From an uncultured Gammaproteobacteria bacterium (GTDB lineage: Bacteria > Patescibacteriota > Patescibacteriia > XYB2-FULL-38-15): a stretch of 64,000 nucleotides of DNA. The notes beneath the pieces are model-generated. The model was not told the DNA's origin, did not search any database, and worked only from the letters and a program-made list of their open reading frames with translations. This document shows positions 535-30,445 of the stretch, piece by piece. The translations under genes were made by a program, and so were the position numbers. Position 1 is the stretch's first letter; each line of letters begins with the position of its first letter. The stretch lies in contig OZ246416.1 of assembly GCA_965231095.1 (NCBI GenBank), positions 536,909 to 600,908 on the forward strand. Direction: 5' to 3'.

Positions 535-652
535 GACCAACCAACAACTTACCCGCCTAGCTCCTATGTTCTGACATTCGGTCGGAACAGAGACGGGTAA
601 GTCCAGTCACTTCCAGTTTGTCGCCTAGGGCGGCGACGAACTGCTCGTATAA

Positions 653-692
653 GGCCAGCTTTCCTTCACCGGATCGCTGGCCTTCTTTTTTT
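653..692 (+). terminator. Rho-independent terminator after the first CDS.
   Basis: ggccagc...gctggcc stem followed by a T9 run. Confidence 0.6.
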
Positions 693-955
693 ATTTATTT
701 CCCCGCGAGGACAGATTTAACGAATTACGGCCTGAGCCTGTCGAAGGCTAATTCAGTTTCACAAAATTTTTACCCCTTCGATAAACTCAGGGAATAAAAA
801 TTTAACTTTTCGGCAAATACATAACGCTTCGCCCGTGAACTAGTTCGCAAAATTGGAGCCGGGGTTTCTACCATTATTTTAATCTAAAAGTAATATTTTT
901 GTTCTAATCCCGTTTTAATCTTAACTGGCCAAAACCAGTCTTTTGTCACATAACC

Positions 956-989
956 TTGACAAAATCAATCTTTTGTTATAACCTATAAA
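956..989 (+). promoter_or_regulatory. Candidate sigma70 promoter (cTTGACAaaa, with an ambiguous -10) upstream of the kinase gene. Direct repeats tcttttgtYaYataacct lie nearby.
   Basis: TTGACA at 956-961. tataaa and ttataa candidates follow. A two-copy direct repeat lies at 941-983. Confidence 0.35.
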
Positions 990-1007
990 GTTAGTTCCTT
1001 AACAAAC

Positions 1008-1056
1008 CGCGTCCGAGGCTTGGATTGATTTATAAATAAATCCAAACTTCGGACGT
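1008..1056 (+). promoter_or_regulatory. Long imperfect hairpin in the 5' leader of the kinase gene.
   Basis: cgtccgaggcttggatt...aatccaaacttcggacg inverted repeat, with no following T-run. Confidence 0.35.
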
Positions 1057-1144
1057 GAAAAATAACCCTTGCTCAAAAGAGCGAGGTAAAATATAGGTAC
1101 CTGTTGAATTCCAAATTGATCGCCATCCGAGGAGGGAAACAAAG

Positions 1145-2917
1145 ATGGCAACCGACGAAACGATCGGCAAAGTCGACGAGATGATCGGCCGGGTCTTCGC
1201 CAACCACTGGGAAATTGTTGATGCCCTCGGCGAAGGCGGGGTTGGCAGCGTCTACCTCGCCAAACATCGGGCGATGGAAACCTACGCCGCGCTCAAGTTC
1301 TTGAGCCCGAAGCTTCGGGGCGACCCGGAGAGCATCGAACGCTTCAAGAGAGAAGTTGACGTCTTGAAGCGATGCGCCCACCCGAACATCGGGGTCGTCC
1401 ACGACTGCGACTTCACCGGGGAAAATCCTTTCATCGTCATGGAATTCCTTGAAGGACAAATCCTGAAGGAAGTCCTGGACGAAACCCCCAAACGGCGGCT
1501 ACACCCCCAACGCACCCGGCGAATCTTCGTTCAGATCCTGTCCGCGTTGGGTGCGGTACACGACCGTGGCGTGATCCACCGCGACCTGAAGCCGGAAAAC
1601 GTCTTCATTCTCCAACTCGGTGGCGGGCGAGGCAACAGGGATGTCGCGAAGCTGATCGACTTCGGGATCGGCAAGGTCTGTGCCAACGGCATGACGGCCC
1701 AACCCAACCTGACGCAAGTCGGACTAGTGGTGGGAACGCCGCTCTACATGTCGCCCGAACAATGCCGCGGCGAAAAAGATGTCGACGGCAGAACAGACCT
1801 CTACGCCGTCGGCGCCATGATCTACGAGTGCGTGACCGGCCAACTACTCTTCAACAAACCGACGCTTGCAGAAATCATGGTCGCTCACCTGAACGAACAT
1901 CCGGCGGCGCCGAAGATGCTCGATCCGTCGATTTCTTCGGAGCTGGAGGCGGTGATCTTCCGGGCGCTGGCAAAGGATCCTGGCAGACGCTTCCAAACGG
2001 CCGAGGAGATGAGCGAGGCACTCGAAGCCGCGATCCCGGAAGACCTGGCTTACTACCGCAACGACAGTCGCCGGGTTCCGACGGTAGCTAGCCGCGCCAT
2101 TGCAACTCCGCCGCGCATTCCGACTCCGGCCGACGACGATCAGCCAACCGCGGAACGACCTAAGCAACCACCCGACGTTTCCAAAACGCCAACAAGGTTG
2201 CTAAGCGGAAGGCGGCCGGCAGCCGGTCTCGCACATGCCAAAACCGTCACGCCCGCCGACCTGAAACGAGAAATGCGGAAAGCCAAGACGGCGGCGATGG
2301 TTCAGAGGATCGCCAAGATTGCCTGGACATGGATGGCGGCGATGGCCTGGAAAATCGCCACGCGCCTCGACCCCTGGCTCAGTAAGCCTCGGCCTCCGTA
2401 CGCGCGCTACTTGCACGCTTCTCTGATTTTCCTCATCGCCCTCACGCTCACCTTCATCCTTGTTCCTCCTATTGGAGGCGAATATGCCAACGCTTCCTCC
2501 GACACGGATGCTTCCACCACGACCGGCGACCAACCCGACGTTCACGTCCCGCGCGACGTGGTCGTGATCCGGGGACCGGTTCCGATGGCACCTCCATCTG
2601 AACACGACGCGGATGCGGTCGAGACCGAGGTCGACGCCGTCGCAACCGACGCGAGCGAAGAAGACGCGACAGAACCCGAGGCGATCGAAGCCGAAGGTGA
2701 AGCCGCCGATTCCCCGACTCCGTCGGACGACTACGCCGAGCGTCTGGCTGCCGCAGAACTCAAGGAGAAGGCCGGAGACGACTTACTTCTTGAGGGAAAG
2801 CTGCGGGAGGCGCTCGCGGCCTACCGGGAGTCACTTGATCTTTTGCCGGAAGGGGCGGAGAACGACAGAATCCTCCTCCAAAGCAAGATCAATCGGCTCG
2901 AACGACGGCTCAAGTGA
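1145..2917 (+). CDS. Hanks-type (eukaryotic-like) Ser/Thr protein kinase. C-terminal TM segment and acidic/TPR-like tail.
   Basis: Motifs VIHRDLKPENVF, DFGIGK and GTPLYMSPEQ. AGGAGG RBS. High GC (~62%). Confidence 0.9.
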   Translation: MATDETIGKVDEMIGRVFANHWEIVDALGEGGVGSVYLAKHRAMETYAALKFLSPKLRGDPESIERFKREVDVLKRCAHPNIGVVHDCDFTGENPFIVMEFLEGQILKEVLDETPKRRLHPQRTRRIFVQILSALGAVHDRGVIHRDLKPENVFILQLGGGRGNRDVAKLIDFGIGKVCANGMTAQPNLTQVGLVVGTPLYMSPEQCRGEKDVDGRTDLYAVGAMIYECVTGQLLFNKPTLAEIMVAHLNEHPAAPKMLDPSISSELEAVIFRALAKDPGRRFQTAEEMSEALEAAIPEDLAYYRNDSRRVPTVASRAIATPPRIPTPADDDQPTAERPKQPPDVSKTPTRLLSGRRPAAGLAHAKTVTPADLKREMRKAKTAAMVQRIAKIAWTWMAAMAWKIATRLDPWLSKPRPPYARYLHASLIFLIALTLTFILVPPIGGEYANASSDTDASTTTGDQPDVHVPRDVVVIRGPVPMAPPSEHDADAVETEVDAVATDASEEDATEPEAIEAEGEAADSPTPSDDYAERLAAAELKEKAGDDLLLEGKLREALAAYRESLDLLPEGAENDRILLQSKINRLERRLK

Positions 2918-2926
2918 GCTGACCTT

Positions 2927-2967
2927 GCGGCTACGAAGATGCCAAACATCTCGTAGCCGCTTTTTTT
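2927..2967 (+). terminator. Rho-independent terminator.
   Basis: gcggctacga...tcgtagccgc stem followed by T7. Confidence 0.7.
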
Positions 2968-2983
2968 ATTTTATCAAAGATAC

Positions 2984-3013
2984 TTGACAAATTTTTTATT
3001 TTATGGTTAGATA
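2984..3013 (+). promoter_or_regulatory. Candidate sigma70 promoter cTTGACAaa-N17-tggTTAGAT.
   Basis: -35 TTGACA at 2984-2989. Weak -10 candidates at 3007-3013, none a close match to TATAAT. GGAGG RBS at 3063. Confidence 0.35.
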
Positions 3014-3075
3014 AAGGGTGCTCAAGGTGAGCCGAGGGGGGGCAAGGGGCCTCTCTTTTTCAGAGGAGGAGTGTC

Positions 3076-3993
3076 ATGAAGCTCATGGTCGTGGTGGCAA
3101 CGGTTCTTTTCTCGGCCGGCAACGCGCTGGCTCAGCAGGGCTACTCTTTCCAGTCCGACACCCAGACCGCTCTGCCTACCGTCGAGGAATGCCTGGCAGA
3201 CCTGAACGAATGTCGCGAGAAGCTCGGCGCCGAGACCGGCGAGAGCATGGATCTCTTGCTCCGGCTCGCCGAGCGACTGGGGTTCGCTTCGGTCGACGAC
3301 ATGCTCACTTCCGACTGCCGAAGCCGACGAGGCACCTGGTCGAACGGCGAGTGCACCTGCACTTCGCCGAACTCCTGGTTCACGGAAGAGTCCCAGGAGT
3401 GCTGCGTGGACAACGCCCGCGCCTACAGCCGACGCCAGGAATCCTGCCGCGAATCGGGAGGCAACTGGTCCTGCCGCGGCGGCTGCCATTGTCCGCTCGG
3501 CACCCAGCTCCTGGATGGACGGTGTCAGGGAGATGCCGCGACGCGCGACGAGATCGACCGGATGCGCAACCGCATCCCCGAGCTCGAAGCCGATGTCGCG
3601 CGCGTCCAGGGAGAACTGGATGCGGCCCGCGAAGAAGGCGACGGCCAGGCCGACCAGATCAGTGATCTGGAAGGTCGGCTCGAGGCCGCCCAGAACGCGC
3701 TCGACGAATTACGAGATCTCCTGAGCCTTCGAGAACAGCAGCTGCGCGACGCTCTGGGAACCGTTCCGCCCGCTCCCCTTCCGGGAACCGCGGAAGCGAT
3801 CGCCGAAGTCGCCGGCGGAACTGCACCCGGACCGCTCGAGCCGACTCCTCCACCGGAAGCCGAAGAGGGCAACTGGTGCACCGAGAACGGGTGGGCATGT
3901 GCCGGTATCATTATCGGCGCACTGGCCGGACTAGGAGGACTCACGGTCGGAATCGTGGAGGCGACTCGCGACATCGAAGTCACACAACAGTAG
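3076..3993 (+). CDS. Secreted protein with a C-terminal TM anchor: signal peptide, Cys-rich module, long coiled coil.
   Basis: MKLMVVVATVLFSAGNALAQQ signal. Heptad-like DRMRNRIPELEADVARVQGELDAAREE... region. C-terminal WACAGIIIGALAGLGGLTVGIV. Confidence 0.6.
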   Translation: MKLMVVVATVLFSAGNALAQQGYSFQSDTQTALPTVEECLADLNECREKLGAETGESMDLLLRLAERLGFASVDDMLTSDCRSRRGTWSNGECTCTSPNSWFTEESQECCVDNARAYSRRQESCRESGGNWSCRGGCHCPLGTQLLDGRCQGDAATRDEIDRMRNRIPELEADVARVQGELDAAREEGDGQADQISDLEGRLEAAQNALDELRDLLSLREQQLRDALGTVPPAPLPGTAEAIAEVAGGTAPGPLEPTPPPEAEEGNWCTENGWACAGIIIGALAGLGGLTVGIVEATRDIEVTQQ

Positions 3994-4018
3994 CTCTGGG
4001 TTCCTCCCACCCGGAGCC

Positions 4019-4071
4019 AAGGCCGACGTTTTTGATGGCAGCAATGTCTCAAACGTCGGCCTTATTTTTTT
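4019..4071 (+). terminator. Rho-independent terminator.
   Basis: aaggccgacgttt...aaacgtcggcctt stem followed by T8. Confidence 0.7.
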
Positions 4072-4141
4072 ATGCCGCGAAAGAGTAAAAGACTGCAAAA
4101 ACGCAAAATTTGAAAAGAGGTTTTTGTCCCCTTCCACTCCC

Positions 4142-4170
4142 TTGACAAAACTTTAAAAATATGGTATATT
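4142..4170 (+). promoter_or_regulatory. Strong sigma70 promoter TTGACA-N17-TATATT with an extended -10 TG.
   Basis: cTTGACAaaactttaaaaataTGgTATATT. Confidence 0.55.
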
Positions 4171-4195
4171 TAACTGTTCTGAAATGGATGAAAAT

Positions 4196-4330
4196 AAACA
4201 AATTTGGATCCTAAAGTAGTTTGGTTTGATACCTGGGTTGCCTCCTCCTCAACCCCTTGGTTTTCAAATCAAACTACTCAAGGATCTGAAATATGGTCTA
4301 CGCAACCCGGGAAGGTCCCGGGTTGAAAAG
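4196..4330 (+). promoter_or_regulatory. Structured 5' UTR: a ~22-bp imperfect inverted repeat followed by a perfect 10-bp hairpin just before the RBS of the collagen-like gene.
   Basis: ggatcctaaagtagtttggtttga ... tcaaatcaaactactcaaggatc, then caacccgggaaggtcccgggttg. Confidence 0.4.
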
Positions 4331-4353
4331 TTTTAGATAGAAAGGGAAGGAAG

Positions 4354-5709
4354 ATGAGGGCGACTTACGTGGCGAACTTGAGAAAGGTAGCCATTGAAAG
4401 GCTACGACCCGACATCTCGGAAGATGTCATCAGGGGTGCGATCACCCCTCTGATCGACCCCGACGGAGAGGACAAAATTGAGAGGGTGGATCTCCGCCCC
4501 GGACCGCGTAGTGCCACGGCTTGGATCTGGTTTTACGAAAGAGAACCGGCGGCCACGGTGCTGAACGCGCTCGGGAACGACACTGACATGGCGTTCCCGG
4601 GTCTTTCCGTGGAAGGAGGAACGATCCGTGCCCACTACTACGGAGAGCGTCTGCCCTTCACTCAGGACGAACTCCTCGAAGCGCTCATCCGGCTCATGGT
4701 CGGCAATCCTTCCTTCAAGGGCCCACCGGGAGTTTCCCCCTCTCCCGCGGACGTAGCGGCGGCACTCTTGGCCGACCCGGCGTTCGTCGCGACGATTAGG
4801 GGCGAGAAGGGCGAGGACGGAACGGCCGGCACCAGAGGCGAGGACGGCGAAGACGGCACCGCGCCCACGGCAACGGAAGTCGCCTCAGCGCTCATGGCCA
4901 ACCCGGCGTTCATGGCGGCGCTCAAGGCCGACCCCGGAACGACCGGCACCAAAGTAGACAAGGGTGACGCTGGCGCCAAGGGCGATCCAGGAATTCCCGG
5001 TGCGAAGGGCGACCCGGGCACGGCCGGCGTTCCCGGCACCAAGGGCGATCCGGGAACTCCCGGCGTCAAGGGAGACAAGGGTGACGCTGGCGCCAAGGGC
5101 GATCCAGGAATTCCCGGTGCGAAGGGCGACCCGGGCACGGCCGGCGTTCCCGGCGCGAAGGGCGACCCGGGTGACCCGGGCAAATCGGCCCCAAAGGGGA
5201 GTTGGATCACGGCGCTTGCCGTGGCCATCATCGCCTTGATCGTCGTCGGCCTCCACGCCACGTGCGGAAAGTCCGCGCCGAGCCGCGAAGAAGTCGCGGC
5301 AACGCTCAAGGCCGATCCGTCCTTCGTGACGGCGACCAAGGGTGGAAACGGAAGGAAGGGCGAGGACGGCAAGTCGGCCGTTGCACCCACGGCGGCAGAA
5401 GTCGCGGCGGCTCTGAAGGCCGATGCGGAGTTTGCCAAGTCCGTGGCAGCAACCGCGAAACCGGCCGAACCGCCGGCTCCGATCCCCACTCCGCCGCCGG
5501 TCGCTGCGGCTCCGACGCCGGAACCGACGGCAACGACCGCTCCGGCACCGAGACGGCGCGAGACACCTCGACCGCCGAGCGCTCCTCACACGTTTGTGAA
5601 CCGCGAAGGGGAGTATGACATTACGTACGCCCTAGACGAGGCGACCGGTGCGCTCCGCGAGCTGCACCGGAGTGTGATTCGTCTTCGAGAAAGGAGGTCG
5701 CGCCAGTAG
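4354..5709 (+). CDS. Collagen-like triple-helix repeat protein (Gly-X-Y tracts) with a central TM helix and a Pro/Ala/Thr-rich tail.
   Basis: GDPGIPGAKGDPGTAGVPGTKGDPGTPGVKGDKGDAG... and WITALAVAIIALIVVGL. Perfect 81-bp direct repeat at 4957-5037 and 5074-5154. Confidence 0.75.
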   Translation: MRATYVANLRKVAIERLRPDISEDVIRGAITPLIDPDGEDKIERVDLRPGPRSATAWIWFYEREPAATVLNALGNDTDMAFPGLSVEGGTIRAHYYGERLPFTQDELLEALIRLMVGNPSFKGPPGVSPSPADVAAALLADPAFVATIRGEKGEDGTAGTRGEDGEDGTAPTATEVASALMANPAFMAALKADPGTTGTKVDKGDAGAKGDPGIPGAKGDPGTAGVPGTKGDPGTPGVKGDKGDAGAKGDPGIPGAKGDPGTAGVPGAKGDPGDPGKSAPKGSWITALAVAIIALIVVGLHATCGKSAPSREEVAATLKADPSFVTATKGGNGRKGEDGKSAVAPTAAEVAAALKADAEFAKSVAATAKPAEPPAPIPTPPPVAAAPTPEPTATTAPAPRRRETPRPPSAPHTFVNREGEYDITYALDEATGALRELHRSVIRLRERRSRQ

Positions 5710-5714
5710 GCGCA

Positions 5715-5763
5715 GGGCGGACGATGCAAGGTGAAAACCAAGCATCGTCCGCCCGTTTTTTTT
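5715..5763 (+). terminator. Rho-independent terminator.
   Basis: gggcggacgatgc...gcatcgtccgccc stem followed by T9. Confidence 0.7.
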
Positions 5764-5839
5764 ACTAAAAAACAGGCTACATGCCCGTCTTATTTTTAAC
5801 CTTATAAACTTTAGAGCTTTTTAACTTTAAAACTAAACC

Positions 5840-6208
5840 TTACACCCCCAACTCCTTTTTTAATTTTTCATAACTATTTTTTGCTTTTTCAAATTCTTCT
5901 TCCACCGCCGCCCGGCTTCCACCTTTTAAAAATCCCAAAAACCTATTCAACAGACCATTATATTCTTTTAAATTTTTTTCTGCTCGGGCCAACCTGTATT
6001 TTTCAAATTCCAATTTTGCTTTTTGTTCGTCAGTTAAAATTGAAACTTTTGATGTCGCGGCCGCTCTCTCCCCCAACGGCTTAATGCCCGCCGCGGCTAG
6101 CCGCTCTTCCACGGCTTTAATCAATCTGCTTGAAACCTGGTCTAAAAAAATTTTAACGCTCGGATCGCGGATAACGGTTTGGGCGGTTTGTAAAATTTGG
6201 TCGGCCAT
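5840..6208 (-). CDS. Hypothetical protein (122 aa), co-directional with and downstream of the 907-aa DHH-domain gene.
   Basis: ORF with host-like low GC. No motif recognised. Confidence 0.4.
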   Translation of the reverse strand: MADQILQTAQTVIRDPSVKIFLDQVSSRLIKAVEERLAAAGIKPLGERAAATSKVSILTDEQKAKLEFEKYRLARAEKNLKEYNGLLNRFLGFLKGGSRAAVEEEFEKAKNSYEKLKKELGV

Positions 6209-9688: not shown

Positions 9689-12094
9689 CTATTTGTACCC
9701 CAACTTCTTCTCTGCCTCTAAAACTCTTAGTGTTGTCTTCAAAACTGAATCAGGATTTAAAGATATGCTATCAATTTTATTTTTTACCAAAAACTCGGCA
9801 AAGTCGGGAAAATCCGACGGCGCCTGCCCGCAAATTCCAATCTTCGTTTTATTTTGATGCGCCACTTTTATAACCGTGCGAACCGCTCTTTTTACCGCTT
9901 CATTTCTTTCATCAAAAAGACGGCTGACAAGTTCCGAATCTCGATCTACGCCCAAAATAAGTTGAGTCAAATCGTTTGAGCCAATACTAAATCCATCAAA
10001 AATTTTAGAAAACTCATCAGCTAAAATTACATTCGAGGGAACCTCCACCATCATATAAATTTTCAGCGGTTTTAATTTCGGGGATTTACCAAGACCGGAC
10101 TCCCTGACCATTAAAACTACGCGCCGCCCTTCGGCGACAGTCCTGCAAAAAGGAACCATCACAATAATATTATCTAAACCAAATTCTTTGCGGACTTTTT
10201 TCATCGCCTCGCACTCCATGGCAAAAGCTTTTTCATAATTCTTGTCGTAATAACGCGCGGCCCCTCGCCAACCGAGCATGGGGTTTGCTTCGCTCGGTTC
10301 AAATTCCGCTCCGCCGATAAGTCCGGCATATTCATTGGATTTAAAATCGGAGAACCGGATAATTACCGGCTTGGGATAAAAAGCCGCGGCGATTCTTCCA
10401 ACACCTTCGGCCAATTTCTCCACAAAAAATTTTGTCTTATCTTTATATCCATGAGTTAATTTTTCAATTTGAATTTTAACTTTCAATTTTAAATTTTTAT
10501 TTTTTAATAAAGCCAACGGGTGAACTTTAATATAGTTGGAAATAATAAATTCTTCACGAGCAAGTCCCACTCCGTCATTTGGAATAAAAGAAAAATCAAA
10601 CGCCCTCTCCGGTTCGCCAACATTCATCATAATTTTTGTTTCGGGCCGTTTAATTTTTTCTAAATCAATTCTCTTAATTTTCACCGGCAAAAATCCTTGG
10701 TAAATTTTTCCTTCTTCCCCTTCGGCGCAACTTACCGTTATTCCTTCGCCATTTTTAAAAACTTCTCGAGCTCGAGCGGCGCCAACCACGCAAGGAATCC
10801 CGAGTTCTCTTGAAACAATTGCGGCATGACACGTCCGGCCGCCGGATTCCGTAACAATCGCGCTCGCCTTTTTCATAATCGGCACCCAATCCGGATCAGT
10901 CATTTTTGTCACGAGCACTTCGCCTTCTCTAAATTTTTCAATTTCCTTAACGTTTTCCAAAATTTTTACCCAACCCTTACCGATTTTTGTCCCGATCGCC
11001 GTCCCGGTTAAGAGCACTTCGCTTTTTCTTTCCAAATTATATTCTTCCAAAATTTTACCATTTTTCTCGGCGTGAATAGTTTCCGGACGCGCTTGAACAA
11101 TATATAACTTATTTTCTTTCCCATCCTTTGCCCATTCAATATCCATCGGTTTTTTATAATATCGCTCAATAATTTCCGCGAAGCGAGCCAGTTCAAAAAC
11201 TTCGTTGTCAGTTAACACAAATTGTCCCCTTTCCTCACGGCTCGTTTTTAAATTAACAGTGGATTTGTTGCCCTTGCCATAAACAAGCTTCATCTCCTTT
11301 GCCCCTAAATTTTTTCCGATGAGCGGCAAAAAACCTTTCCGCAGAGTTGGTTTAAAAATATAATATTGGTCGGGAATAATTCTGCCCTTTACGATATTTT
11401 CTCCAAGGCCAAGGCCGGCGCTCACTAAAATTACGTCCCGAAAACCCGTTTCCGTATCAAGAGTAAAAATCACGCCGCTTGAAGCCAAATCCGAGCGCAC
11501 CATTTTTTGAACACCAACAGAAACAGAAATTTTCGAGTGATTAAATTTATGATCGGCGGAATAAGCTATGGCGCGATCGGTATAAAGAGAAGCAAAACAT
11601 TTTTTTACCGTATCAATAAAATTTTTCTCGCCCACATTTAAAAAGCTCTCAAGCTGCCCGGCAAACGACGCCACTGGTAAATCTTCGGCGGTGGCGGAGG
11701 AGCGAACCGCTACCCCGGAGCTCCCTCCGGATAATTTTTTATAAGCGCGTAAAATTTCAAAAGTAAGCGGGCGGGGAATTTTTCCCCCAATAATCAACTT
11801 CCTAATTTTCTGCCCGGCAACAAGAATATTTTTTATATTTCCGGAATCGGCGGAAGAAAGTAAATCTTCAATTTTCTTTTCCAAATTATTAAATTTTAAA
11901 AACTGCCTAAAAGCATAGGCAGTTATCGCAAAACCCTTGGGTATGGGGATATTTTTTGATTTTAAATTTTGATACATCTCTCCGAGCGACGCGTTCTTGC
12001 CCCCGACCAGCCTCACATCCCCGATCTTTATCTCATTGAACCAAAGAATTAATTTTTTATTTTTACTCATACGGCTAAATCTCCCTAATTTCAA
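9689..12094 (-). CDS. ppsA: Phosphoenolpyruvate synthase (pyruvate, water dikinase). The true start may be the Met 8 codons downstream at 12070.
   Basis: N-terminal GGKNASLGEM (PPDK_N). Mobile His domain GGRTCHAAIVSRELGIPCVVG. C-terminal PEP-utilising TIM barrel. ~800 aa. Confidence 0.85.
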   Translation of the reverse strand: MKLGRFSRMSKNKKLILWFNEIKIGDVRLVGGKNASLGEMYQNLKSKNIPIPKGFAITAYAFRQFLKFNNLEKKIEDLLSSADSGNIKNILVAGQKIRKLIIGGKIPRPLTFEILRAYKKLSGGSSGVAVRSSATAEDLPVASFAGQLESFLNVGEKNFIDTVKKCFASLYTDRAIAYSADHKFNHSKISVSVGVQKMVRSDLASSGVIFTLDTETGFRDVILVSAGLGLGENIVKGRIIPDQYYIFKPTLRKGFLPLIGKNLGAKEMKLVYGKGNKSTVNLKTSREERGQFVLTDNEVFELARFAEIIERYYKKPMDIEWAKDGKENKLYIVQARPETIHAEKNGKILEEYNLERKSEVLLTGTAIGTKIGKGWVKILENVKEIEKFREGEVLVTKMTDPDWVPIMKKASAIVTESGGRTCHAAIVSRELGIPCVVGAARAREVFKNGEGITVSCAEGEEGKIYQGFLPVKIKRIDLEKIKRPETKIMMNVGEPERAFDFSFIPNDGVGLAREEFIISNYIKVHPLALLKNKNLKLKVKIQIEKLTHGYKDKTKFFVEKLAEGVGRIAAAFYPKPVIIRFSDFKSNEYAGLIGGAEFEPSEANPMLGWRGAARYYDKNYEKAFAMECEAMKKVRKEFGLDNIIVMVPFCRTVAEGRRVVLMVRESGLGKSPKLKPLKIYMMVEVPSNVILADEFSKIFDGFSIGSNDLTQLILGVDRDSELVSRLFDERNEAVKRAVRTVIKVAHQNKTKIGICGQAPSDFPDFAEFLVKNKIDSISLNPDSVLKTTLRVLEAEKKLGYK

Positions 12095-13505
12095 TCAAAT
12101 TAATATTGCCCGAACGACCGACTGGTTCGCCGGCAATAATAATTATTTTATCGCCCCGCATTACAAATTTATTTTTTTTGATATAGCCGAGCGAGCGATC
12201 AACTAATTCTTCAACTGAACGACAAGCAGGCAAAACAAAGGGCAGAACTCCCCAGGACAAAGTTAATTGGCGCTGCACGCGCGCGCTGTCGGAAGTAACA
12301 AGAATCGGCAATTCCGGGCGGTAGCGGGCAACAATCCGGCCGGCATAACCGGAAAGCGAAGCCGCCAAAATTGCCTTGGCACGGACGGTATTTGATAAAA
12401 TTTTTGCCACTTGGCTCACGGCGTCATCAATTTTTATATTTTTTACAATACTTCCCATTACCAAATCATCATAACTTGATTTTTCCGTTTCTCTAATTAT
12501 TTTTGCCATCATCTCCACTGACTGAACCGGATAGGCGCCGCTCGCCGTTTCTCCGGAAAGCATTACGGCGTCAGTATGATCAATAACGGCGTTCGCCACG
12601 TCGGAAACTTCAGCCCGAGTCGGCCGCGGTTTTCTGATCATGGAGTCAAGCATTTGAGTCGCGACAATTACCGGTTTCGCTTCCGCCAAACACTTGTCAA
12701 TAATTTTTTTCTGCCAAAGTGGCACGTCTTCCGGCGGGGTTTCAATGCCCAAATCGCCGCGGGCGATCATAATTCCGTCCACTGCTTCCAAAATTTCTCC
12801 CAAATTTTTTACCGCTTCATGTTTTTCTATTTTGGCAATAATTCTGATTGGCGAACCTTTCGGTATTTTTAATTTTTTTTCCAAATCGCGGATTAAATAT
12901 CTCAAATCATAAATTTCTGACGCACGGGAAACAAAAGAGAGCGCGACCCAATCAACTCCCTCCCCAATCGCCAGTTTAAGATCCTCCCTATCTTTTTTCG
13001 TAAGCGGCGGAATTTTAACTGATGAATCGGGAAGATTAATTCCTTTGTGTGAAGTCAAAATTCCTCCGACCACGACTTCGCATAAAATATCTCTACCGGA
13101 AATTTTTAAAACTTTTAATTCCAACAAACCCTCATCAAGAAGAATACGGTCTCCGGGAGATAAATCTTTGTGTAAATTTTCGTAAGTAATTGAAATTTTT
13201 TCTTTATTTTTTCCCGGGGCGGTTGTCAGGGTAATTTTATTTTTGGGGATAAGTTTCACTCCGGCCTCTGGAAGTTCCCCCACTCTGATGCGCGGCCCCT
13301 GCAAATCGGCGATTATGCCAATCGGCTGGCCAAGTTCTTCGGAAATTTTTTTAATATTTTTTATGGCCTTTTCGTGCCAAGCGTGCGTACCGTGGGAAAA
13401 ATTAAGCCGGGCAACATTCATGCCGGCTTTCACCATTTTTTTCAAAGTAGCCGGCTTCTCCGAAACCGGACCGATTGTGCAAACTATTTTTGTACGTTTT
13501 GACAT
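12075..13505 (-). CDS. pyk: Pyruvate kinase.
   Basis: MSKRTKIVCTIGPVS...ARLNFSHG. MIARGDLGIE motif. 476 aa. Confidence 0.95.
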   Translation of the reverse strand: MSKRTKIVCTIGPVSEKPATLKKMVKAGMNVARLNFSHGTHAWHEKAIKNIKKISEELGQPIGIIADLQGPRIRVGELPEAGVKLIPKNKITLTTAPGKNKEKISITYENLHKDLSPGDRILLDEGLLELKVLKISGRDILCEVVVGGILTSHKGINLPDSSVKIPPLTKKDREDLKLAIGEGVDWVALSFVSRASEIYDLRYLIRDLEKKLKIPKGSPIRIIAKIEKHEAVKNLGEILEAVDGIMIARGDLGIETPPEDVPLWQKKIIDKCLAEAKPVIVATQMLDSMIRKPRPTRAEVSDVANAVIDHTDAVMLSGETASGAYPVQSVEMMAKIIRETEKSSYDDLVMGSIVKNIKIDDAVSQVAKILSNTVRAKAILAASLSGYAGRIVARYRPELPILVTSDSARVQRQLTLSWGVLPFVLPACRSVEELVDRSLGYIKKNKFVMRGDKIIIIAGEPVGRSGNINLIEIREI

Positions 13506-24170: not shown

Positions 24171-25868
24171 CTACATCTCCTCCGGCGCGGCTATGCCTAA
24201 AATTCCCAGACCATTAGCCAAAACAATTTTCACCGCGTCGATCAAGGCGACTCTCGCCCTCTCTGCTTCCAAGTCCGCGCCAATAACTTTTACATCGCGG
24301 TAAAAATCGCTAAAAGCCTTTGCTAAATCATAAAGATAATCTGCGAGCACGGCCGGATTACGGGCTCCCGCCGCTTTTTCCAGAATCTCGGGAAACTTCG
24401 CGAGCAGAACCATCAAATTATATTCCCACTTTTCTTGGAATTTATCAAAATCAACTTTTCCCGATATTTTTGTTCCCGCCTTGCGAATGATGGAACAAAT
24501 TCTCGCGTGGGTGTATTGCAAATAAGCGGCCGTGAAACCTTCAAAATGCAGGGCTCTATCAATATCAAAAGTGATGGTCTGTTCTTTTCCCACTTTTATC
24601 ATTTCAAATTTTATCGCCCCAACCACAATTTTTTTTGCCGTCTCCCGGATTTGTTCCTCGCTCCAATTGGCGTGGCGTTTTTTTATTTCACCCAGTGCCC
24701 GTTCCGTCGCCTCGTTCCATAAATTTTCAAAAGTTATGACATTGCCGGTCCGCGAAGACATCATGCCGCTGGGCAGTTTTACAAATTCATAACCCAGGTG
24801 GGTCATTTTTTGTTTATAGCCGAGCAACTCTAAAATTTTAAATAATTGCTCAAAATATAAACTCTGCCGAACGTCAACCACGTAAATTGATTCGTCCAAT
24901 TTATATTTTTTAAATTTTTTTATTGCAAGCGGCAGATCTGCCACGGGATACAGCGCCGTTCCGTCGGAGCGCAAAAATAACAAAACTCCAAGATTATATT
25001 TTTCCAAATTTGCGATAACCGCGCCCTGACTTTTCACCAAAAAATTCTTTTGAAAAAGCTCATCAACCATTTTCCTCCCCTCATCAATCACTTCACTTTC
25101 ATAAAAAATTTTATCAAAACTAACTTCCATCTTTTCGTAAATTTTCGCGAATTGTTTAACGCTCCACTCCCTCGTTTCCTGCCAAAGTTTATATTCCGGT
25201 CCGCGCCGACTTTCAATTTTTGCCATCAAGGCGCCAACCGCTTCTTTGGCAGTCGGGTCTTTTTCTATTTCCCCGGTCGAACGAGCGTAAATTTGTCCCA
25301 AAAAATATCCCAAATTTTCCGGCGGCTTCTCATTTTTATAAAATTTTTCATAAGCCCAAAGAGTTTTCGCCACGTGAATTCCAAAATCATTTATGTAGGA
25401 CACTGAAATTGCTTTATTTCCGACGGCGGCAAGGAGCCGGGAAACCGCGTCGCCATAACAAAGATTTCTAAGATGCCCGACATGATATTCTTTGTGAGTA
25501 TTGGCGTTGGAAAATTCTATCATCACTCTTTTCCTTTTTCCCAAATTGCTCTTTCCGTATTTTTCCTTATCTTTCAAAATTTTATTCAAAACCAACCTCG
25601 CCATTTTTCTTTTATCAAGAAAAAAATTAAGATATGGCCCGGCGGCGGAAATTTTTCCGACAATTCCGGCCGGCTTAATTTTTTCTCCTAACTCTTTGGC
25701 AATTTCCGGCGGAGAATTACCAAGTTCTTTGGCAAAATTAAAACAAGGCAAGGACAAATCGCCAAATTCCGGATTCGGCGGAAAAACAAAATCCTCTTCC
25801 GATGTCGGAAGCTCCGGAAAATATTTTTTAACCAAGCCGGCAGTTTCTTTTTTTATTTTTAACCACAT
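24171..25868 (-). CDS. argS: Arginine--tRNA ligase.
   Basis: HVGHLRN (HIGH-like). C-terminal DALR anticodon-binding region AAYLQYTHARICSIIRK. 565 aa. Confidence 0.9.
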   Translation of the reverse strand: MWLKIKKETAGLVKKYFPELPTSEEDFVFPPNPEFGDLSLPCFNFAKELGNSPPEIAKELGEKIKPAGIVGKISAAGPYLNFFLDKRKMARLVLNKILKDKEKYGKSNLGKRKRVMIEFSNANTHKEYHVGHLRNLCYGDAVSRLLAAVGNKAISVSYINDFGIHVAKTLWAYEKFYKNEKPPENLGYFLGQIYARSTGEIEKDPTAKEAVGALMAKIESRRGPEYKLWQETREWSVKQFAKIYEKMEVSFDKIFYESEVIDEGRKMVDELFQKNFLVKSQGAVIANLEKYNLGVLLFLRSDGTALYPVADLPLAIKKFKKYKLDESIYVVDVRQSLYFEQLFKILELLGYKQKMTHLGYEFVKLPSGMMSSRTGNVITFENLWNEATERALGEIKKRHANWSEEQIRETAKKIVVGAIKFEMIKVGKEQTITFDIDRALHFEGFTAAYLQYTHARICSIIRKAGTKISGKVDFDKFQEKWEYNLMVLLAKFPEILEKAAGARNPAVLADYLYDLAKAFSDFYRDVKVIGADLEAERARVALIDAVKIVLANGLGILGIAAPEEM

Positions 25869-25887: not shown

Positions 25888-27234
25888 TTATAACTTGAAA
25901 CTTACTCTGATAAAATGTCTTTTCCCTTTTTGCACCAAAACTCCGTCGGCGGGAATTTCCACTACGGCGTTAATGTCATTAATAATTTTATCACCAACTT
26001 TTACGCCGCCCTGTTCTACCAATCTCCGCGCTTCACCCTTACTGGCTGCCAATTTGGTTTCCGTAAGTAAGTCCAATACTTTATACTTACTACTTGATAC
26101 CTTATACTCAACCACTTCTTCCGGTGCTTCTTTTTTCTGAAAAATTTTAACAAAATTCGCCTCCGCCTTTAATGCTATGGGTTCGGAATAATACATAGCT
26201 ACAATTTCATGAGCTAAACGCATCTTAGCATAACGTTTGTCACCATCTAGAATGTAATCTACTTTAGTCATCGGCACACGTGTACAAATTTCATAAGCCA
26301 CGCGCATTAAAGTATCTGGCCAACTCATAACCTTTCCGTACATTTCCTCTGGACTATCTTCTAACGTCACTACATTTCCTTCGGTTTTACCCATCTTCTT
26401 CCCCATTGGATCAACTAATAATTTTGTCGTCAAAACAAATTTTTCCTTATGTTTTAAAAATTTGATCAGATGGCGACCCACGAGCATATTAAAAGTCTGG
26501 TCGTTACCGCCAACTTCCCCGTCAACGCCCATTGCCACGGAATCATAACCCTGCATTAAGGGATATAAAAACTCATGTAGATAAACTGGCTTGGGGGCTA
26601 TAACGTCCTCCTTACTAAATAATCTATATTCTCTACAAATTGGACAAAAATTTTTATTATTCTCTAATCTAGAAGTTTCAAAATTTTTAATAGAGCCAAA
26701 TTGGATTGGCGAGTCAGAAATATTTTTACATACAGGGCATCTCCATTTCCAAATAAGCCTTCCTTTAAACATATCTCGATCGGCCATCTGCTGAACCGTA
26801 AAGTGAGACGCGAGTTCTAGCACATCCGCAAATTTCAATTTTCCCAACCACTTGCTATTATATTTAATTTCAACTTTTTTCATGTCCAAAATTTTTCCGG
26901 CCTGTTTGGCATAATTTTTACAATTGGCCAGCACTTCTTTGCGAGTCAATTTTTTCCGCGTCGCCGTTTTGTCCGTCGGGTCGCCAATCATTCCGGTGAA
27001 ATCTCCGATCAACAAAATTATTTTATGGCCAAGTTCTTGAAGTTCGCGGAGTTTCAAAAGCACGCTGCCATGGCCAATGTGCAACGTTGGCCCGGTTGGA
27101 TCAATGCCATTATAAATTGTTAATTGTTTTCCACTCTTCAATGCTTTTCCAAATTCCTCGCGCGAGGGATAAACGTTTTCCACTCCCCGCGTTAAAAATT
27201 CTTGGATTTTTTTCTCGTCAGTATTTACTTTCAT
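25888..27234 (-). CDS. tyrS: Tyrosine--tRNA ligase with a C-terminal S4 domain and an inserted CxxC...CxxC zinc-ribbon-like segment.
   Basis: HIGH = LHIGHG. KMSKS-like KMGKTEGN. S4 AASKGEARRLVEQGGVKV. Insertion CPVCKN...(28)...CPICRE at aa 166-201. Confidence 0.85.
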   Translation of the reverse strand: MKVNTDEKKIQEFLTRGVENVYPSREEFGKALKSGKQLTIYNGIDPTGPTLHIGHGSVLLKLRELQELGHKIILLIGDFTGMIGDPTDKTATRKKLTRKEVLANCKNYAKQAGKILDMKKVEIKYNSKWLGKLKFADVLELASHFTVQQMADRDMFKGRLIWKWRCPVCKNISDSPIQFGSIKNFETSRLENNKNFCPICREYRLFSKEDVIAPKPVYLHEFLYPLMQGYDSVAMGVDGEVGGNDQTFNMLVGRHLIKFLKHKEKFVLTTKLLVDPMGKKMGKTEGNVVTLEDSPEEMYGKVMSWPDTLMRVAYEICTRVPMTKVDYILDGDKRYAKMRLAHEIVAMYYSEPIALKAEANFVKIFQKKEAPEEVVEYKVSSSKYKVLDLLTETKLAASKGEARRLVEQGGVKVGDKIINDINAVVEIPADGVLVQKGKRHFIRVSFKL

Positions 27235-27238
27235 AAAT

Positions 27239-30200
27239 TTATTCTAAAGATTTTAATTGCTCTTTAATTTTTTTAACCTTTTCTTTTTGCAATCCCAATT
27301 TCTCTTTTTCTCCAGCCACAAGTTCTTTGGGTGCGTTTTGGAGAAATGCCTTATTGGATAATTTATTTTCTAAAACTCCCAGATATTTTTCCGCTTCGGC
27401 CAATTCTTTTTCCAGGCGCGCTTTTTCTTTGGGAACGTCAATCAACCCGGCCAACGGCAAATAAATTTCGATGCCCCCCGCGATCGCTCCGGCCGACCAC
27501 TCCGGTTTTGCCCCGGATTTTTTAATCACCAAATTTTCCACTCGCGCCAAGCTTCTAATAATTCCCGCCTGCTCTTCCAAAAATTTTGTTTTTGCGCCGC
27601 CATACATTTCAACCGAAACCCTCTTCGCCGGCTCTATCTTATAATCAGCCCGCATGGCGCGAATAGCGACAACAACATTTTTCAAAATCTCAAAATCTTT
27701 TTCCGCTTTTTTATCAATCAACTTCTTTTCCGTTTTCGGCCACTCGGAAATCATCAATAAATTTCCGCCAAAATTAGGCCACAACTCCTCGGTCACGTAT
27801 GGCATAAACGGATGCCAGAGTTTAACAATTAACGAGTAACAATTAACAAGCAACAAATTGTTTGGTTGGATTTTATTTATTTCAATATACCAATCAGCAA
27901 ATTCGTCCCAGCTGAAAGCCCGCAATTTTTCTCCGGCCTGGGAAAACTCAAAATTATCCAGGTGTTTTGTAACCTCGGCGACGACATCATTCAGCCGCGA
28001 TAAAATCCACTTCTCCGCCAATGTTAAATTTTTACTTTTTAATTGTAATTTTGACTTTTGACTTTTGACTTTTGACTTTTCGATCACATATCTTCCAATA
28101 TTCCACAGTTTATTTGTAAAATTTCTAAAACCCGCGATTTTTTCGTCACTTAATTTCATATCATTTCCCGGCGAAGTGCCAAGCACCAAAGAAAGCCGCA
28201 CCGCGTCCGTGCCGTATTTTTCTATCATATCCAGGGGATCAATAATATTGCCAAGCGACTTGCTCATTTTTCTTCCTTTTTCATCGCGGATCAAGCCATG
28301 AAGATAAACATTATGAAACGGAATATCGCCTAAAACATAAGTTGTCATCAAAATCATTCTCGCAATCCAAAAAAATAAAATATCATAACCGGTTTCCAAA
28401 ACAGAAGTTGGATGATATGTTTTTAAATCTTTTGTTTTTTCCGGCCAACCTAAAGTTGAAAAAGTCCAAAGCCCGGAAGAAAACCATGTATCCAAAGTGT
28501 CGGGATCTTGTTTAAGATCTTTTTGGCCGCAGGCGGGACAAGAAACCGGAGCGAATTTTATCTCCAAAGATCCGGCCGGTTTTGGATAATCAAGTTTTAA
28601 AAAATCTTTGTTGCTCGCGAGATTGGTCTTAAAGCCCTGCACCATGCGACAAACGTCACCGTGCGTTACAACCAATATTTTTTTTCCGGCATATTTTTTT
28701 GTCACCTCTTCCAAAAATTCAAAAACTCTGGATTTTAAACTTTCAAAAGATTCAATTCCCTTCGGGTTTCCGCTCTGCCAGGCTTCAAAATTATTTTTTC
28801 TAAAATTATCAAGTTCAAAATCGGGCCCGCCCTCAAATTCCCCAACCCCGACCTCGCGTAATCTTTTATCTTCAATTATCGGAAGATGAAGATTTTCATT
28901 TATAATCGCTGCCGTATCTTTTGTCCTTTTAAAATCTGAGCAAAAAATCACGCTGAAATTTTTATTTTCAATTTCCTTGGAAATTTCACGAATCTCTTTT
29001 TCCCCATTTTCGGTCAAACCATTTGTCTGCTTGGAAACGTCCGAATTTAATTTATTCGACAAATTACTCTTCGCTTCCCCGTGGCGCATAAACAAAATTT
29101 CCGTCGGCGCAAAATCGGTCACGGCCGGCTCGTTACACTTTGCGCAATACCAAACCGGAATCTGGTGCCCAAACCAAATTTGGCGGGAAATATTCCAATC
29201 GCGCAAATTATCAATCCAATGAAAATAAGTTTTACTAAAGCGCTCGGGAATTATTTTTATTTTTCCGCCCTCTACCGCTTCACGCATCAATTTTTTTAAT
29301 GTCTTTCCGCCGCGCCGTTTTATTGGTTTATTAACATTAACAAACCACTGTTTTTTAATCTGTGGCTCAATCAATCCCTCGCCGCGCGAATTTATCGCCA
29401 CCCGATGAACATAATTTCCATCAATATGATCAACTAAACCCTTGGCCCGAAGTTTTTCCACAATTTTCTCCCGCGCCTCGCCAATTTTCATTCCGGCAAA
29501 TTCTCCGGCAATCGGAAGCAACTTGCCATCAAAATCAATAATCTGCTCTTTGTCCAAATTATGCCGCTCGGCAATTTCAAAATCTGTCGCGTCGTGCCAC
29601 GGAGTAATGGTCATCACCCCGGTGCCAAAATCCATATCAATCGCCCTATCTTTAATAACGGTGGCGGTTATTTTACCGTTGATCCACTCCACCGTTAATT
29701 TTTCCCCGTGCTTATATTTTTTGTATCGCTTGTCATCCGGATGCATCACTACATATTTATCTCCGAACTTTGTCTCGGGCCGAGCCGTACTGATCACAAA
29801 CGGCCCATACTTAAAATAATAAAAAGGAATTTTCTGTTCAATCCATTCCACCTCATCGTCGGAAACTGTAGTTTGGAGCGCCGGATCCCAATTTACAATT
29901 CTCTCCCCGCGGTAAATCAAACCATCATCATACATCATCTTAAAAACCGTGCGCACGGCCCGCGACCGCGGCTCATCCAAAGTATAGGCCTCGCGCGACC
30001 AGTCGCAAGACGATCCCATTTTTTTGATTTGATTTTTTATTGTGCTTTTTGTGCTTGTAATAAATTTTTCCACTTCACCCAAAAATTTCTCCCGGCCCAA
30101 ATCATGGCGAGTTTTTCCTTCCCGCTCTTTCAAAAGTTTTTCCACTTTGGTTTGTGTGGCAATGGCCGCGTGATCCGTACCCGGGAGCCATAAAGTCCGT

Positions 30201-30445
30201 TCGCCCCGCATCCGATGATAGCGAATTAAAATATCCTCCACCGCAAGCATTACGGCATGGCCCAAATGCAGGGTGCCGGTCACATTCGGCGGCGGCATAA
30301 TAATGGAAAATGATTTCCCTTGTCCAAGGCGATCTCTGGCTTGACGCGGCAAATTATCTGGATTAAAATACCCAGATTTCTCCCATTTTCCGTAAATCTC
30401 GTCTTCTACGGCTTTTGGATTGTACGCTTTCTCTAACTCTCGCAT
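27239..30445 (-). CDS. valS: Valine--tRNA ligase (1068 aa) carrying an inserted histidine-phosphatase (PGAM-like) domain.
   Basis: PPPNVTGTLHLGHA, KMSKSLGN, C-terminal coiled coil. Insertion at aa ~447-625 (nt 28573-29107) with LFMRHGEAKSN and VVTHGDV motifs between CAKC and CPAC. Confidence 0.9.
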   Translation of the reverse strand: MRELEKAYNPKAVEDEIYGKWEKSGYFNPDNLPRQARDRLGQGKSFSIIMPPPNVTGTLHLGHAVMLAVEDILIRYHRMRGERTLWLPGTDHAAIATQTKVEKLLKEREGKTRHDLGREKFLGEVEKFITSTKSTIKNQIKKMGSSCDWSREAYTLDEPRSRAVRTVFKMMYDDGLIYRGERIVNWDPALQTTVSDDEVEWIEQKIPFYYFKYGPFVISTARPETKFGDKYVVMHPDDKRYKKYKHGEKLTVEWINGKITATVIKDRAIDMDFGTGVMTITPWHDATDFEIAERHNLDKEQIIDFDGKLLPIAGEFAGMKIGEAREKIVEKLRAKGLVDHIDGNYVHRVAINSRGEGLIEPQIKKQWFVNVNKPIKRRGGKTLKKLMREAVEGGKIKIIPERFSKTYFHWIDNLRDWNISRQIWFGHQIPVWYCAKCNEPAVTDFAPTEILFMRHGEAKSNLSNKLNSDVSKQTNGLTENGEKEIREISKEIENKNFSVIFCSDFKRTKDTAAIINENLHLPIIEDKRLREVGVGEFEGGPDFELDNFRKNNFEAWQSGNPKGIESFESLKSRVFEFLEEVTKKYAGKKILVVTHGDVCRMVQGFKTNLASNKDFLKLDYPKPAGSLEIKFAPVSCPACGQKDLKQDPDTLDTWFSSGLWTFSTLGWPEKTKDLKTYHPTSVLETGYDILFFWIARMILMTTYVLGDIPFHNVYLHGLIRDEKGRKMSKSLGNIIDPLDMIEKYGTDAVRLSLVLGTSPGNDMKLSDEKIAGFRNFTNKLWNIGRYVIEKSKVKSQKSKLQLKSKNLTLAEKWILSRLNDVVAEVTKHLDNFEFSQAGEKLRAFSWDEFADWYIEINKIQPNNLLLVNCYSLIVKLWHPFMPYVTEELWPNFGGNLLMISEWPKTEKKLIDKKAEKDFEILKNVVVAIRAMRADYKIEPAKRVSVEMYGGAKTKFLEEQAGIIRSLARVENLVIKKSGAKPEWSAGAIAGGIEIYLPLAGLIDVPKEKARLEKELAEAEKYLGVLENKLSNKAFLQNAPKELVAGEKEKLGLQKEKVKKIKEQLKSLE

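Follow-up and report, generated by a model that had tools for sequence, protein, structure and literature searches.

A histidine phosphatase domain carried in the zinc knuckle of a valyl-tRNA synthetase from Patescibacteria

Introduction

What is a phosphatase doing inside an aminoacyl-tRNA synthetase (aaRS)? The question is raised by valS, the valyl-tRNA synthetase (ValRS) gene in a 64-kb stretch of contig OZ246416.1 (assembly GCA_965231095.1, positions 536,909 to 600,908), which comes from an uncultured bacterium of the Patescibacteriota. We refer to the whole of this stretch as the window and number all positions within it. The initial annotation had described a PGAM-like histidine phosphatase domain embedded in this ValRS and had called the arrangement unusual. 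It is well established that aaRS can gain new functions through additional catalytic domains, which have been described mostly for eukaryotes. The Patescibacteria are a large radiation of ultra-small bacteria, and most of what is known of their biology has been deduced from genome sequences.

We find that valS encodes a full-length ValRS in which a complete PhoE/CobC-like phosphatase domain is borne by the zinc knuckle, in the loop between the two halves of the Rossmann fold, an architecture of which we are practically certain. An apparently intact phosphatase thus sits within the catalytic body of ValRS, and the pattern extends to isoleucyl-tRNA synthetase (IleRS), to a fusion with arginyl-tRNA synthetase (ArgRS) and to aaRS operons. 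The arrangement is unusual in comparison with characterised aaRS; among Patescibacteria, where it is common in both ValRS and IleRS, that description does not apply.

Results

A complete synthetase interrupted at its zinc knuckle

The product of valS passes both valine--tRNA ligase equivalog models of NCBIfam (NF004349, 1001.8 bits against a cutoff of 704; TIGR00422, 925.3 bits against 612) and matches the ValRS of Thermus thermophilus (1gax) at E=5e-197, which bears out the initial identification of the host. It is a ValRS by all sequence criteria tested: the HIGH and KMSKS signatures, the connective peptide 1 (CP1) editing domain, the anticodon-binding domain, the C-terminal coiled coil and collinearity with 1gax. 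The CP1 motifs TARPET and WHDATD occupy amino acids (aa) 220-225 and 283-288, and in the second half DTWFSS and KMSKS lie at aa 652-657 and 726-730. By these measures valS encodes a complete ValRS, the charging of tRNA-Val itself being predicted, and it is the only valS-like open reading frame (ORF) in the window.

The Pfam architecture of the ORF consists of tRNA-synt_1 (E=7e-132), split into two stretches by His_Phos_1, followed by Anticodon_1 and Val_tRNA-synt_C. The alignment with 1gax is split in the same manner: phmmer pairs residues 3-439 of the query with residues 2-422 of the chain and residues 619-1066 with residues 424-860. Because 1gax aligns as two blocks, the approximately 180 extra residues can be placed at a single point inside the WYCxxC...CxxC zinc knuckle, the position between the two CxxC halves that had been proposed at the outset. 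All modules of the two enzymes are collinear (HIGH, CP1, CxxC...CxxC, DTWFSS, KMSKS, anticodon domain and coiled coil). Where they differ is in the knuckle loop, which measures about 16 residues in 1gax and about 198 in the window ValRS, since a whole enzyme domain sits within it (Table 1).

Table 1. Positions of valS, its parts and other features in the 64-kb window
Feature	Position	Strand	Basis
valS, complete class Ia ValRS with insert, 1068 aa	27239..30445	-	ORF, NCBIfam, 1gax match, AlphaFold2 model
ValRS aa 1-433, first Rossmann half and CP1 editing domain	29147..30445	-	Pfam, 1gax alignment, motifs
HLGH motif, ValRS aa 60-63	30257-30268	-	Motif positions
CP1 mosaic region, ValRS aa 200-390	29276-29848	-	
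Cassette of 212 aa (aa 434-645), zinc knuckle and phosphatase	28511..29146	-	Protein and DNA alignments with L001
First knuckle CxxC, C434-A-K-C437	29135..29146	-	Aligns with CEDC of 1gax
Histidine phosphatase domain (His_Phos_1, PhoE/CobC-like), aa 445-632	28550..29113	-	Pfam, custom HMM envelope 445-632
RHGE motif, R454, H455, G456, E457; H455 is the predicted phospho-accepting nucleophile	29075..29086	-	Motif positions
R507, second phosphate-binding arginine (SDFKRTKDT)	28925..28927	-	Motif and alignment of copies
E531, predicted general acid (LREVGVGEFEG)	28853..28855	-	Aligns with PhoE segment LREIHLGDWEG
H595, second catalytic histidine (VVTHGD)	28661..28663	-	Motif and alignment of copies
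Second knuckle CxxC, C636-P-A-C639	28529..28540	-	Aligns with CEAC of 1gax
ValRS aa 646-1068, second Rossmann half, anticodon-binding domain, C-terminal coiled coil	27242..28510	-	Pfam, 1gax alignment
tyrS, 4 bp downstream of valS, likely co-transcribed	25888..27234	-	ORF list, Pfam
TyrRS insert of about 54 aa (aa ~160-214)	26593-26757	-	
argS, next gene on the same strand	24171..25868	-	Pfam
IleRS, 966 aa	60630-63530	+	
Hanks-type Ser/Thr protein kinase	1145-2917		
Collagen-repeat protein	4354-5709		
Pyruvate phosphate dikinase and pyruvate kinase, side by side	9689-13505	-	
ORF of 907 aa	6221-8944	-	No Pfam family at E<=1e-5
ORF of 382 aa	34939-36087	-	No Pfam family at E<=1e-5
ORF of 534 aa	44990-46594	-	No Pfam family at E<=1e-5
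ORF of 1517 aa	49137-53690	+	No Pfam family at E<=1e-5

The insert is a histidine phosphatase domain of branch 1

A scan with profile hidden Markov models (HMMs) detects His_Phos_1 (PF00300) in the whole ValRS with 115.2 bits (E=4e-33, aa 450-602), far above the Pfam cutoff of 21.7, and with 120 bits (E=1.3e-34) in the segment 28573-29107 taken by itself. The translation of this segment on the reverse strand, PTEILFMRHGEAKSN...VVTHGDV...KPA, contains LFMRHGEAKSN, so that the catalytic pair on which the superfamily assignment had been based is present with its RHG...HG residues intact. By the criteria tested (Pfam score, catalytic core and modelled alpha/beta fold) the insert belongs to branch 1 of the histidine phosphatase superfamily. 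The regions around R454-H455-G456, E531 and H595 pair with the PhoE segments RHGE, LREIHLGDWEG and VTHG; N461 is also among the mapped motif positions of the insert. The window contains no second copy of the phosphatase.

Among solved structures, the nearest by sequence is PhoE of Geobacillus stearothermophilus (1ebb and 1h2e, E=5.5e-17), followed by PspA (4ij5), CobC (6nru) and TIGAR, and the true mutases rank lower. PhoE, PspA and CobC have the same branch 1 fold of about 180-200 aa with the full catalytic set; the PhoE match spans nearly the whole insert, and CobC is among the top NCBIfam models. These three enzymes are free-standing, whereas the phosphatase of the window is embedded in a synthetase.

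Equivalog assignments were rejected in each case. For phosphoglycerate mutase, dPGM_arch reaches 87.8 bits (cutoff 225) and GpmB 55.6 (cutoff 261), and the models of bacterial 2,3-bisphosphoglycerate-dependent mutases (dPGM) are not reached. For CobC, TIGR03162 scores 92.4 against 162.9 and NF011580 60.3 against 250, and for PspA the score is 65 bits against 350. The scores of SixA in NCBIfam lie far below those of the CobC and PhoE types. The motif at the second histidine reads HGD, where the dPGM signature is HGN. Since the dPGM, CobC and PspA cutoffs are all missed, a substrate cannot be carried over from those enzymes. Judged by these scores, 'PGAM-like' is a fitting name for the fold of the insert and not for its activity. 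Histidine phosphatase homologs of the mutase type are often phosphatases, and the nearest characterised relatives, which include PspA, comprise CobC, whose substrate is a ribosyl-5'-phosphate, and PhoE, which has broad specificity (PMC2964296, PMC3866925).

The insert is among the best-modelled regions of an AlphaFold2 model of ValRS computed from an alignment of 76 sequences. The model has a mean predicted local distance difference test score (pLDDT) of 89 and a predicted template modelling score (pTM) of 0.81; over aa 445-600, where strands and helices alternate, the pLDDT is 91-97, so that the insert is modelled above 90. The strand at 448-454 bears the RHG motif, the strand at 626-631 leads back to the knuckle, so that the domain has both of its ends there, and the linkers are short. 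In the model, the phosphatase domain is predicted to fold autonomously and to be held rigidly by its short linkers at the tip of the knuckle. A Foldseek search with the whole model returns 1gax first and IleRS structures next. The point at which the knuckle departs from the catalytic fold lies some 15 residues ahead of DTWFSS, the Trp of which is reported to line the valine pocket in 1gax.

The domain recurs in ValRS and IleRS

Relatives of the window protein carry the same insertion, as the initial annotation had proposed to survey. We searched the full-length ValRS against 5.8 billion clustered proteins and inspected the 120 nearest clusters, 28 of which contain PF00300: the window's own protein (P0016, on an 886-kb contig) and 27 others. 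A search seeded with an insert-bearing IleRS finds the domain in 67 of the 120 nearest clusters. Exact peptide patterns run against GTDB genomes matched ValRS flanks only, in unrelated metagenome-assembled genomes. Taxonomic reach is read from how close homologs are labelled (Patescibacteria, Falkowbacteria, Moranbacteria); the named insert-bearing relatives are Patescibacteria and Moraniibacteriota for ValRS, and Moranbacteria, Parcubacteria and Patescibacteria for IleRS. When 1.84 billion representatives are searched exhaustively by HMMER with the insert and 30-residue flanks, 14,102 matches result; the best 150 comprise 72 IleRS, 23 ValRS, 13 other architectures and 42 short or free-standing proteins. 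All of these fractions, those among the nearest clusters included, describe neighbourhoods and not prevalence, because the query includes ValRS flank and insert-bearing matches score higher. Host type (ValRS or IleRS) was confirmed by NCBIfam for a sample of the matches. At least 95 distinct clusters of ValRS and IleRS at 50% identity carry the domain. The same architecture appears in independent clusters by the dozen, drawn from NCBI, JGI, ENA and Logan, which means that it is not an assembly artefact.

Mapped onto the reference, the knuckle loop is the main site of insertion in both enzymes, with 48 of 59 copies in ValRS and 73 of 83 in IleRS. A minority of copies occupy sites in CP1, downstream of DTWFSS...GWP or downstream of KMSKS. 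Matches to the domain alone, at these other sites, still sit in ValRS or IleRS. One protein can hold one to three copies of the phosphatase: P0120, P0137, P0139, P0178 and P0084 are ValRS or IleRS of up to 1750 aa with two or three copies at separate sites, and P0137 carries a partial fourth histidine phosphatase domain. NCBI labels several of the proteins (P0017, P0041, P0289, P0295, P0304, P0307 and P0342) 'class I tRNA ligase family protein' or 'hypothetical protein', and therefore valS or ileS could be scored as missing in metabolic reconstructions.

The embedded domains have diverged widely: the mean identity among 140 aaRS-embedded copies is about 30%. Each catalytic residue is nevertheless kept in at least 90% of them. 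Among 47 ValRS-loop copies, the Arg and His of RHG are retained in 44 and 47, the second Arg in 46, the acidic residue in 43 (with Asp in 2 more) and the second His in 44; the corresponding numbers among 73 IleRS-loop copies are 71, 71, 72, 66 (with Asp in 7 more) and 73. The retention of catalytic residues at such low identity indicates selection for catalysis, as opposed to a spacer role, and we consider it very probable from this pattern that the domain is an active enzyme.

Presence and absence of the cassette

A syntenic locus (L001, GCA_040961035.1; gene order DHH - valS - tyrS - argS) encodes a ValRS that is 86% identical overall to the window ValRS and has neither the knuckle nor the phosphatase. 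Between ...IPVWY and QDPDTLDTWFSS... the cassette is replaced by an 18-aa cysteine-free linker, RGTETYVGIEAPKGEGWM. The 300-nt flanks of the cassette are 84-86% identical between the window and L001 DNA, and the guanine and cytosine (GC) content of the cassette, 0.40, is like that of its flanks (0.39-0.45). No boundary repeats were noticed by eye in the junction sequences, for which no dedicated repeat search was made. When 133 ValRS hosts are arranged in a neighbour-joining tree, proteins with and without the insert alternate at many shallow nodes, giving a patchy distribution. Compared in this way, at the sequence level, the cassette is dispensable to ValRS.

Recombination is evident within the valS genes. 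The CP1 region is a mosaic of two alleles that are 41-44% identical, set in backbones 82-94% identical; one allele is found in P0016, P0017 and P0020 and the other in P0018, P0019, P0024 and P0028. Each allele is found in genes that have the cassette and in genes that lack it, and the presence of all four combinations implies recombination inside valS. The mosaic also accounts for P0018, the insert of which is more similar to that of the window (identity 0.82) than the host is (0.74). Lateral transfer of the cassette was considered for this protein and rejected, as sliding windows trace the low host identity wholly to the swapped CP1; outside CP1 the host identity is about 0.83-0.90, and the insert is therefore not anomalous. 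Once the mosaic is allowed for, the insert diverges in step with the host in P0016-P0019. Alleles with and without the cassette on such similar backbones (roughly 83-94% identical outside CP1) amount to a ready-made natural experiment.

A polymorphism of this kind, among near-identical hosts and in a recombining gene in which the cassette is present or absent irrespective of the CP1 allele, is what one might expect if the insert were an inactive structural spacer or a selfish, intein-like cassette mobile in frame. We hold this to be extremely improbable in view of the catalytic residues preserved across very divergent copies and the concerted divergence of insert and host in P0016-P0019. A mobile element such as an intein was rejected as a candidate: a Pfam scan of the ORF contains no Hint, intein or endonuclease family, the composition is unchanged, the boundaries lie inside the knuckle loop, and the inspection of the junctions by eye, which was not followed by a repeat search, gave no boundary repeats.

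The same observations bear on a second alternative, under which the domain would be a passenger, namely a housekeeping phosphatase of the PhoE, PspA or small dPGM kind with an unrelated metabolic role, lodged in a permissive surface loop of essential enzymes that are highly expressed, with co-expression or genome compaction as the sole benefit of the fusion. The near-identical ValRS without the cassette, the patchy distribution, and the several sites with up to three copies per protein all agree with it. So do the insertion of unrelated domains (NUDIX, P-loop kinase) into the same hosts and the finding that, in this sample, domain divergence between host classes (about 0.29) is nearly equal to that within them (about 0.33). 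Pyruvate phosphate dikinase (PPDK) and pyruvate kinase are encoded in the window, so lower glycolysis is present. Against a passenger stand the overwhelming preference for ValRS and IleRS as hosts, even among domain-only matches, and the failure to reach the dPGM, CobC and PspA equivalog cutoffs. The evidence from free-standing homologs, to which we now turn, also speaks against it.

Free-standing homologs and fusion partners

The closest free-standing homolog (P0001, 44% identical; Staskawiczbacteria and four other contigs) begins 3 bp after argS and stops 5 bp before ileS, in an argS-hp-ileS arrangement at L008-L012 (e.g. L008 4325-9436). A gene of the HIT family lies a few genes upstream of this cluster in L008-L010. 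In a different neighbourhood, another free-standing homolog (P0003, 41% identical) likewise begins 3 bp after argS (L013 2739-5176). ArgRS is, moreover, a fusion partner as well as a neighbour of the closest homologs, since P0229 is an ArgRS with the phosphatase at its C-terminus. The phosphatase lineage is physically tied to class I aaRS in three ways: as an operon neighbour, as a C-terminal fusion to ArgRS and as an in-loop insert of ValRS and IleRS. A pure passenger is hard to reconcile with so strong a preference for certain hosts, with the operon arrangements and with the existence of the ArgRS end-fusion, and we regard the passenger reading as unlikely. A function linked to aaRS or tRNA is, on the strength of these genomic associations, probable.

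Fusions to other proteins extend the list of partners. P0263 joins the phosphatase to a NudC NAD diphosphatase and P0234 to a QueC-like PP-loop protein, while among IleRS, P0283 and P0308 combine it with a P-loop domain resembling nucleoside monophosphate (NMP) kinases and P0324 with a NUDIX domain. The fusion partners share two traits, AMP release and the handling of tRNA or RNA.

The second of these traits invites the reading that the domain repairs tRNA ends, removing a blocking group (a 3'-phosphate, a 2',3'-cyclic phosphate that has been opened, or a 3'-(pyro)phosphate added by a toxin) so that damaged tRNA can be charged. Toxic small alarmone synthetases add pyrophosphate to the CCA end of tRNA. 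All partners are linked to tRNA or RNA (ValRS, IleRS, ArgRS, QueC-like, the RNA-decapping NudC), two IleRS clusters bring the phosphatase together with a P-loop kinase-like domain, the classic pair of end healing, and the knuckle leaves the fold shortly before DTWFSS, the Trp of which reportedly lines the valine pocket. The kinase-like matches are, however, very weak: the domain of one IleRS (P0283/P0308) matches Pnkp1 at E=0.057 and APS and shikimate kinases similarly weakly. Multiple copies at different sites do not fit a cis action of specific geometry, the surrounding genes showed neither an RNA ligase nor a cyclase, and action on RNA ends is not known for any histidine phosphatase. PADLOC-DB gives zero matches for the insert, the whole ValRS and the stand-alone homolog P0001; this counts against end repair as well, and membership of a defence system was dropped on the same result. 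We judge tRNA end repair to be improbable.

Discussion

Proposed function of the phosphatase

In the reading we prefer, the insert is an active phosphomonoesterase of the PhoE/CobC kind, coupled to class I aaRS as an accessory and acting on a nucleotide-type substrate; taken as a whole, and drawn from sequence comparison, it seems to us evenly balanced between right and wrong. By the mechanism of the family, a phosphomonoester would be hydrolysed through a phospho-His455 intermediate, with R454, R507 and H595 holding the phosphate and E531, the presumed general acid, protonating the leaving group. The phosphatase would be an accessory to aminoacylation and not a part of it. It would remove a nucleotide-type phosphoester made or used around synthetases, either locally or in trans.

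The leading candidate is AMP, which every aminoacylation reaction releases. The initial annotation had suggested action on a nucleotide, on a misactivated intermediate or in signalling, and among these options the pattern of fusion partners favours a nucleotide, in so far as NudC, the QueC-like protein, the ArgRS fusion and the IleRS with NUDIX or NMP-kinase-like domains all release or handle nucleotides. We rank a nucleotide substrate first because enzymes of the CobC and PhoE types take ribosyl-5'-phosphates or a broad range of phosphoesters, and because NUDIX and NMP-kinase-like domains co-occur with the phosphatase; as a specific claim, nucleotide or AMP hydrolysis is tentative and, taken singly, rather doubtful.

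Several points weigh against the accessory reading. More distant stand-alone homologs do not adjoin aaRS genes, and the ValRS flank in the HMMER query enriches for insertions at the same site. The pattern of AMP-releasing partners is drawn from a handful of fusions outside aaRS and reads equally well as one of tRNA- or RNA-related proteins. The presence of up to three copies, the several sites and the easy loss of the domain fit a passenger. The destruction of AMP looks wasteful for organisms that salvage nucleotides. Multiple copies at multiple sites argue, in addition, against any strictly geometry-dependent role in cis.

Action on a protein is a further alternative, in which the domain would dephosphorylate the synthetase or a partner, for example by reversing an inactivating phosphorylation of the KMSKS region by HipA-type or Hanks-type kinases, or would serve in signalling. 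SixA, PGAM5 and Sts-1 are protein phosphatases of the same superfamily, the toxins HipA and HipT target class I aaRS, the association of the domain is restricted to class I enzymes, and a Ser/Thr kinase gene is present in the window. That gene, though, is separated from valS by 25 kb and belongs to a region of different base composition, no conserved kinase stands beside the stand-alone homologs, and the low SixA scores reported above do not suggest a protein substrate. We consider this alternative very improbable.

A bolder proposal goes beyond the accessory phosphomonoesterase. Phosphatases of this lineage, whose named members are found in Patescibacteria, might constitute an accessory system that is dedicated to class I aaRS and has so far gone unrecognised. 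The system would repair or unblock the substrates of charging, perhaps by taking phosphate or pyrophosphate, placed by toxins or host defences, off the CCA end or the synthetase, and its function would move between free genes of argS/ileS operons and in-loop inserts of ValRS and IleRS. We think this distinctly unlikely. The importance of the locus would be greater if the phosphatase did act on tRNA or on the synthetase. From the repeated physical coupling one would expect the hydrolysis of phosphate esters to be connected with tRNA charging or with the nucleotide economy of these reduced, host-dependent cells.

Comparison with known multidomain enzymes

In general terms, a synthetase that contains a further enzyme has a precedent, as NCBIfam curates NF040702, 'isoleucine--tRNA ligase, N-acetyltransferase domain-containing', which is likewise a class Ia aaRS with an unrelated enzyme domain. 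That domain is GNAT and not His_Phos, and the window ValRS scores 158 bits against the NF040702 cutoff of 1999. His_Phos_1 is fused to a nucleic-acid partner in the bifunctional RNase H/acid phosphatase (NF005567; Rv2228c/RnhC type), for which the insert scores 72 bits against a cutoff of 326. The pairing of a kinase with His_Phos in PFK-2/FBPase-2 recalls the IleRS P0283 and P0308; the 6PF2K domain was not detected. Both of these are end-to-end fusions, while the window ValRS is a loop insertion. In the literature covered, which included a survey of domain insertions and did not extend to subscription journals, we found no account of a histidine phosphatase in any aaRS. What appears to be new is the histidine phosphatase inside an aaRS; the sequences and the precomputed Pfam matches are already public.

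Gene neighbourhood in the window

The ValRS is the sole host of the phosphatase here, as the CxC...CxxC knuckle of the window IleRS is a plain one, although the corresponding loop holds the phosphatase in many other IleRS. The neighbouring tyrosyl-tRNA synthetase (TyrRS, 448 aa) contains a short insert with two CxxC pairs (WRCPVCKN...FCPICREY) that the 394-aa TyrRS of L001 lacks, a second zinc-knuckle-type insertion in an adjacent synthetase. The PPDK encoded in the window is an enzyme that uses AMP and pyrophosphate, both by-products of aminoacylation. Positions 1-6000, which contain the Hanks-type kinase and the collagen-repeat protein, have a GC content of 0.56-0.62, against 0.40-0.47 in most of the window, and this GC-rich stretch may be foreign DNA. 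Smaller GC peaks occur at 38-40 kb, at a CHAP/MopE-motif protein, and at 48-52 kb.

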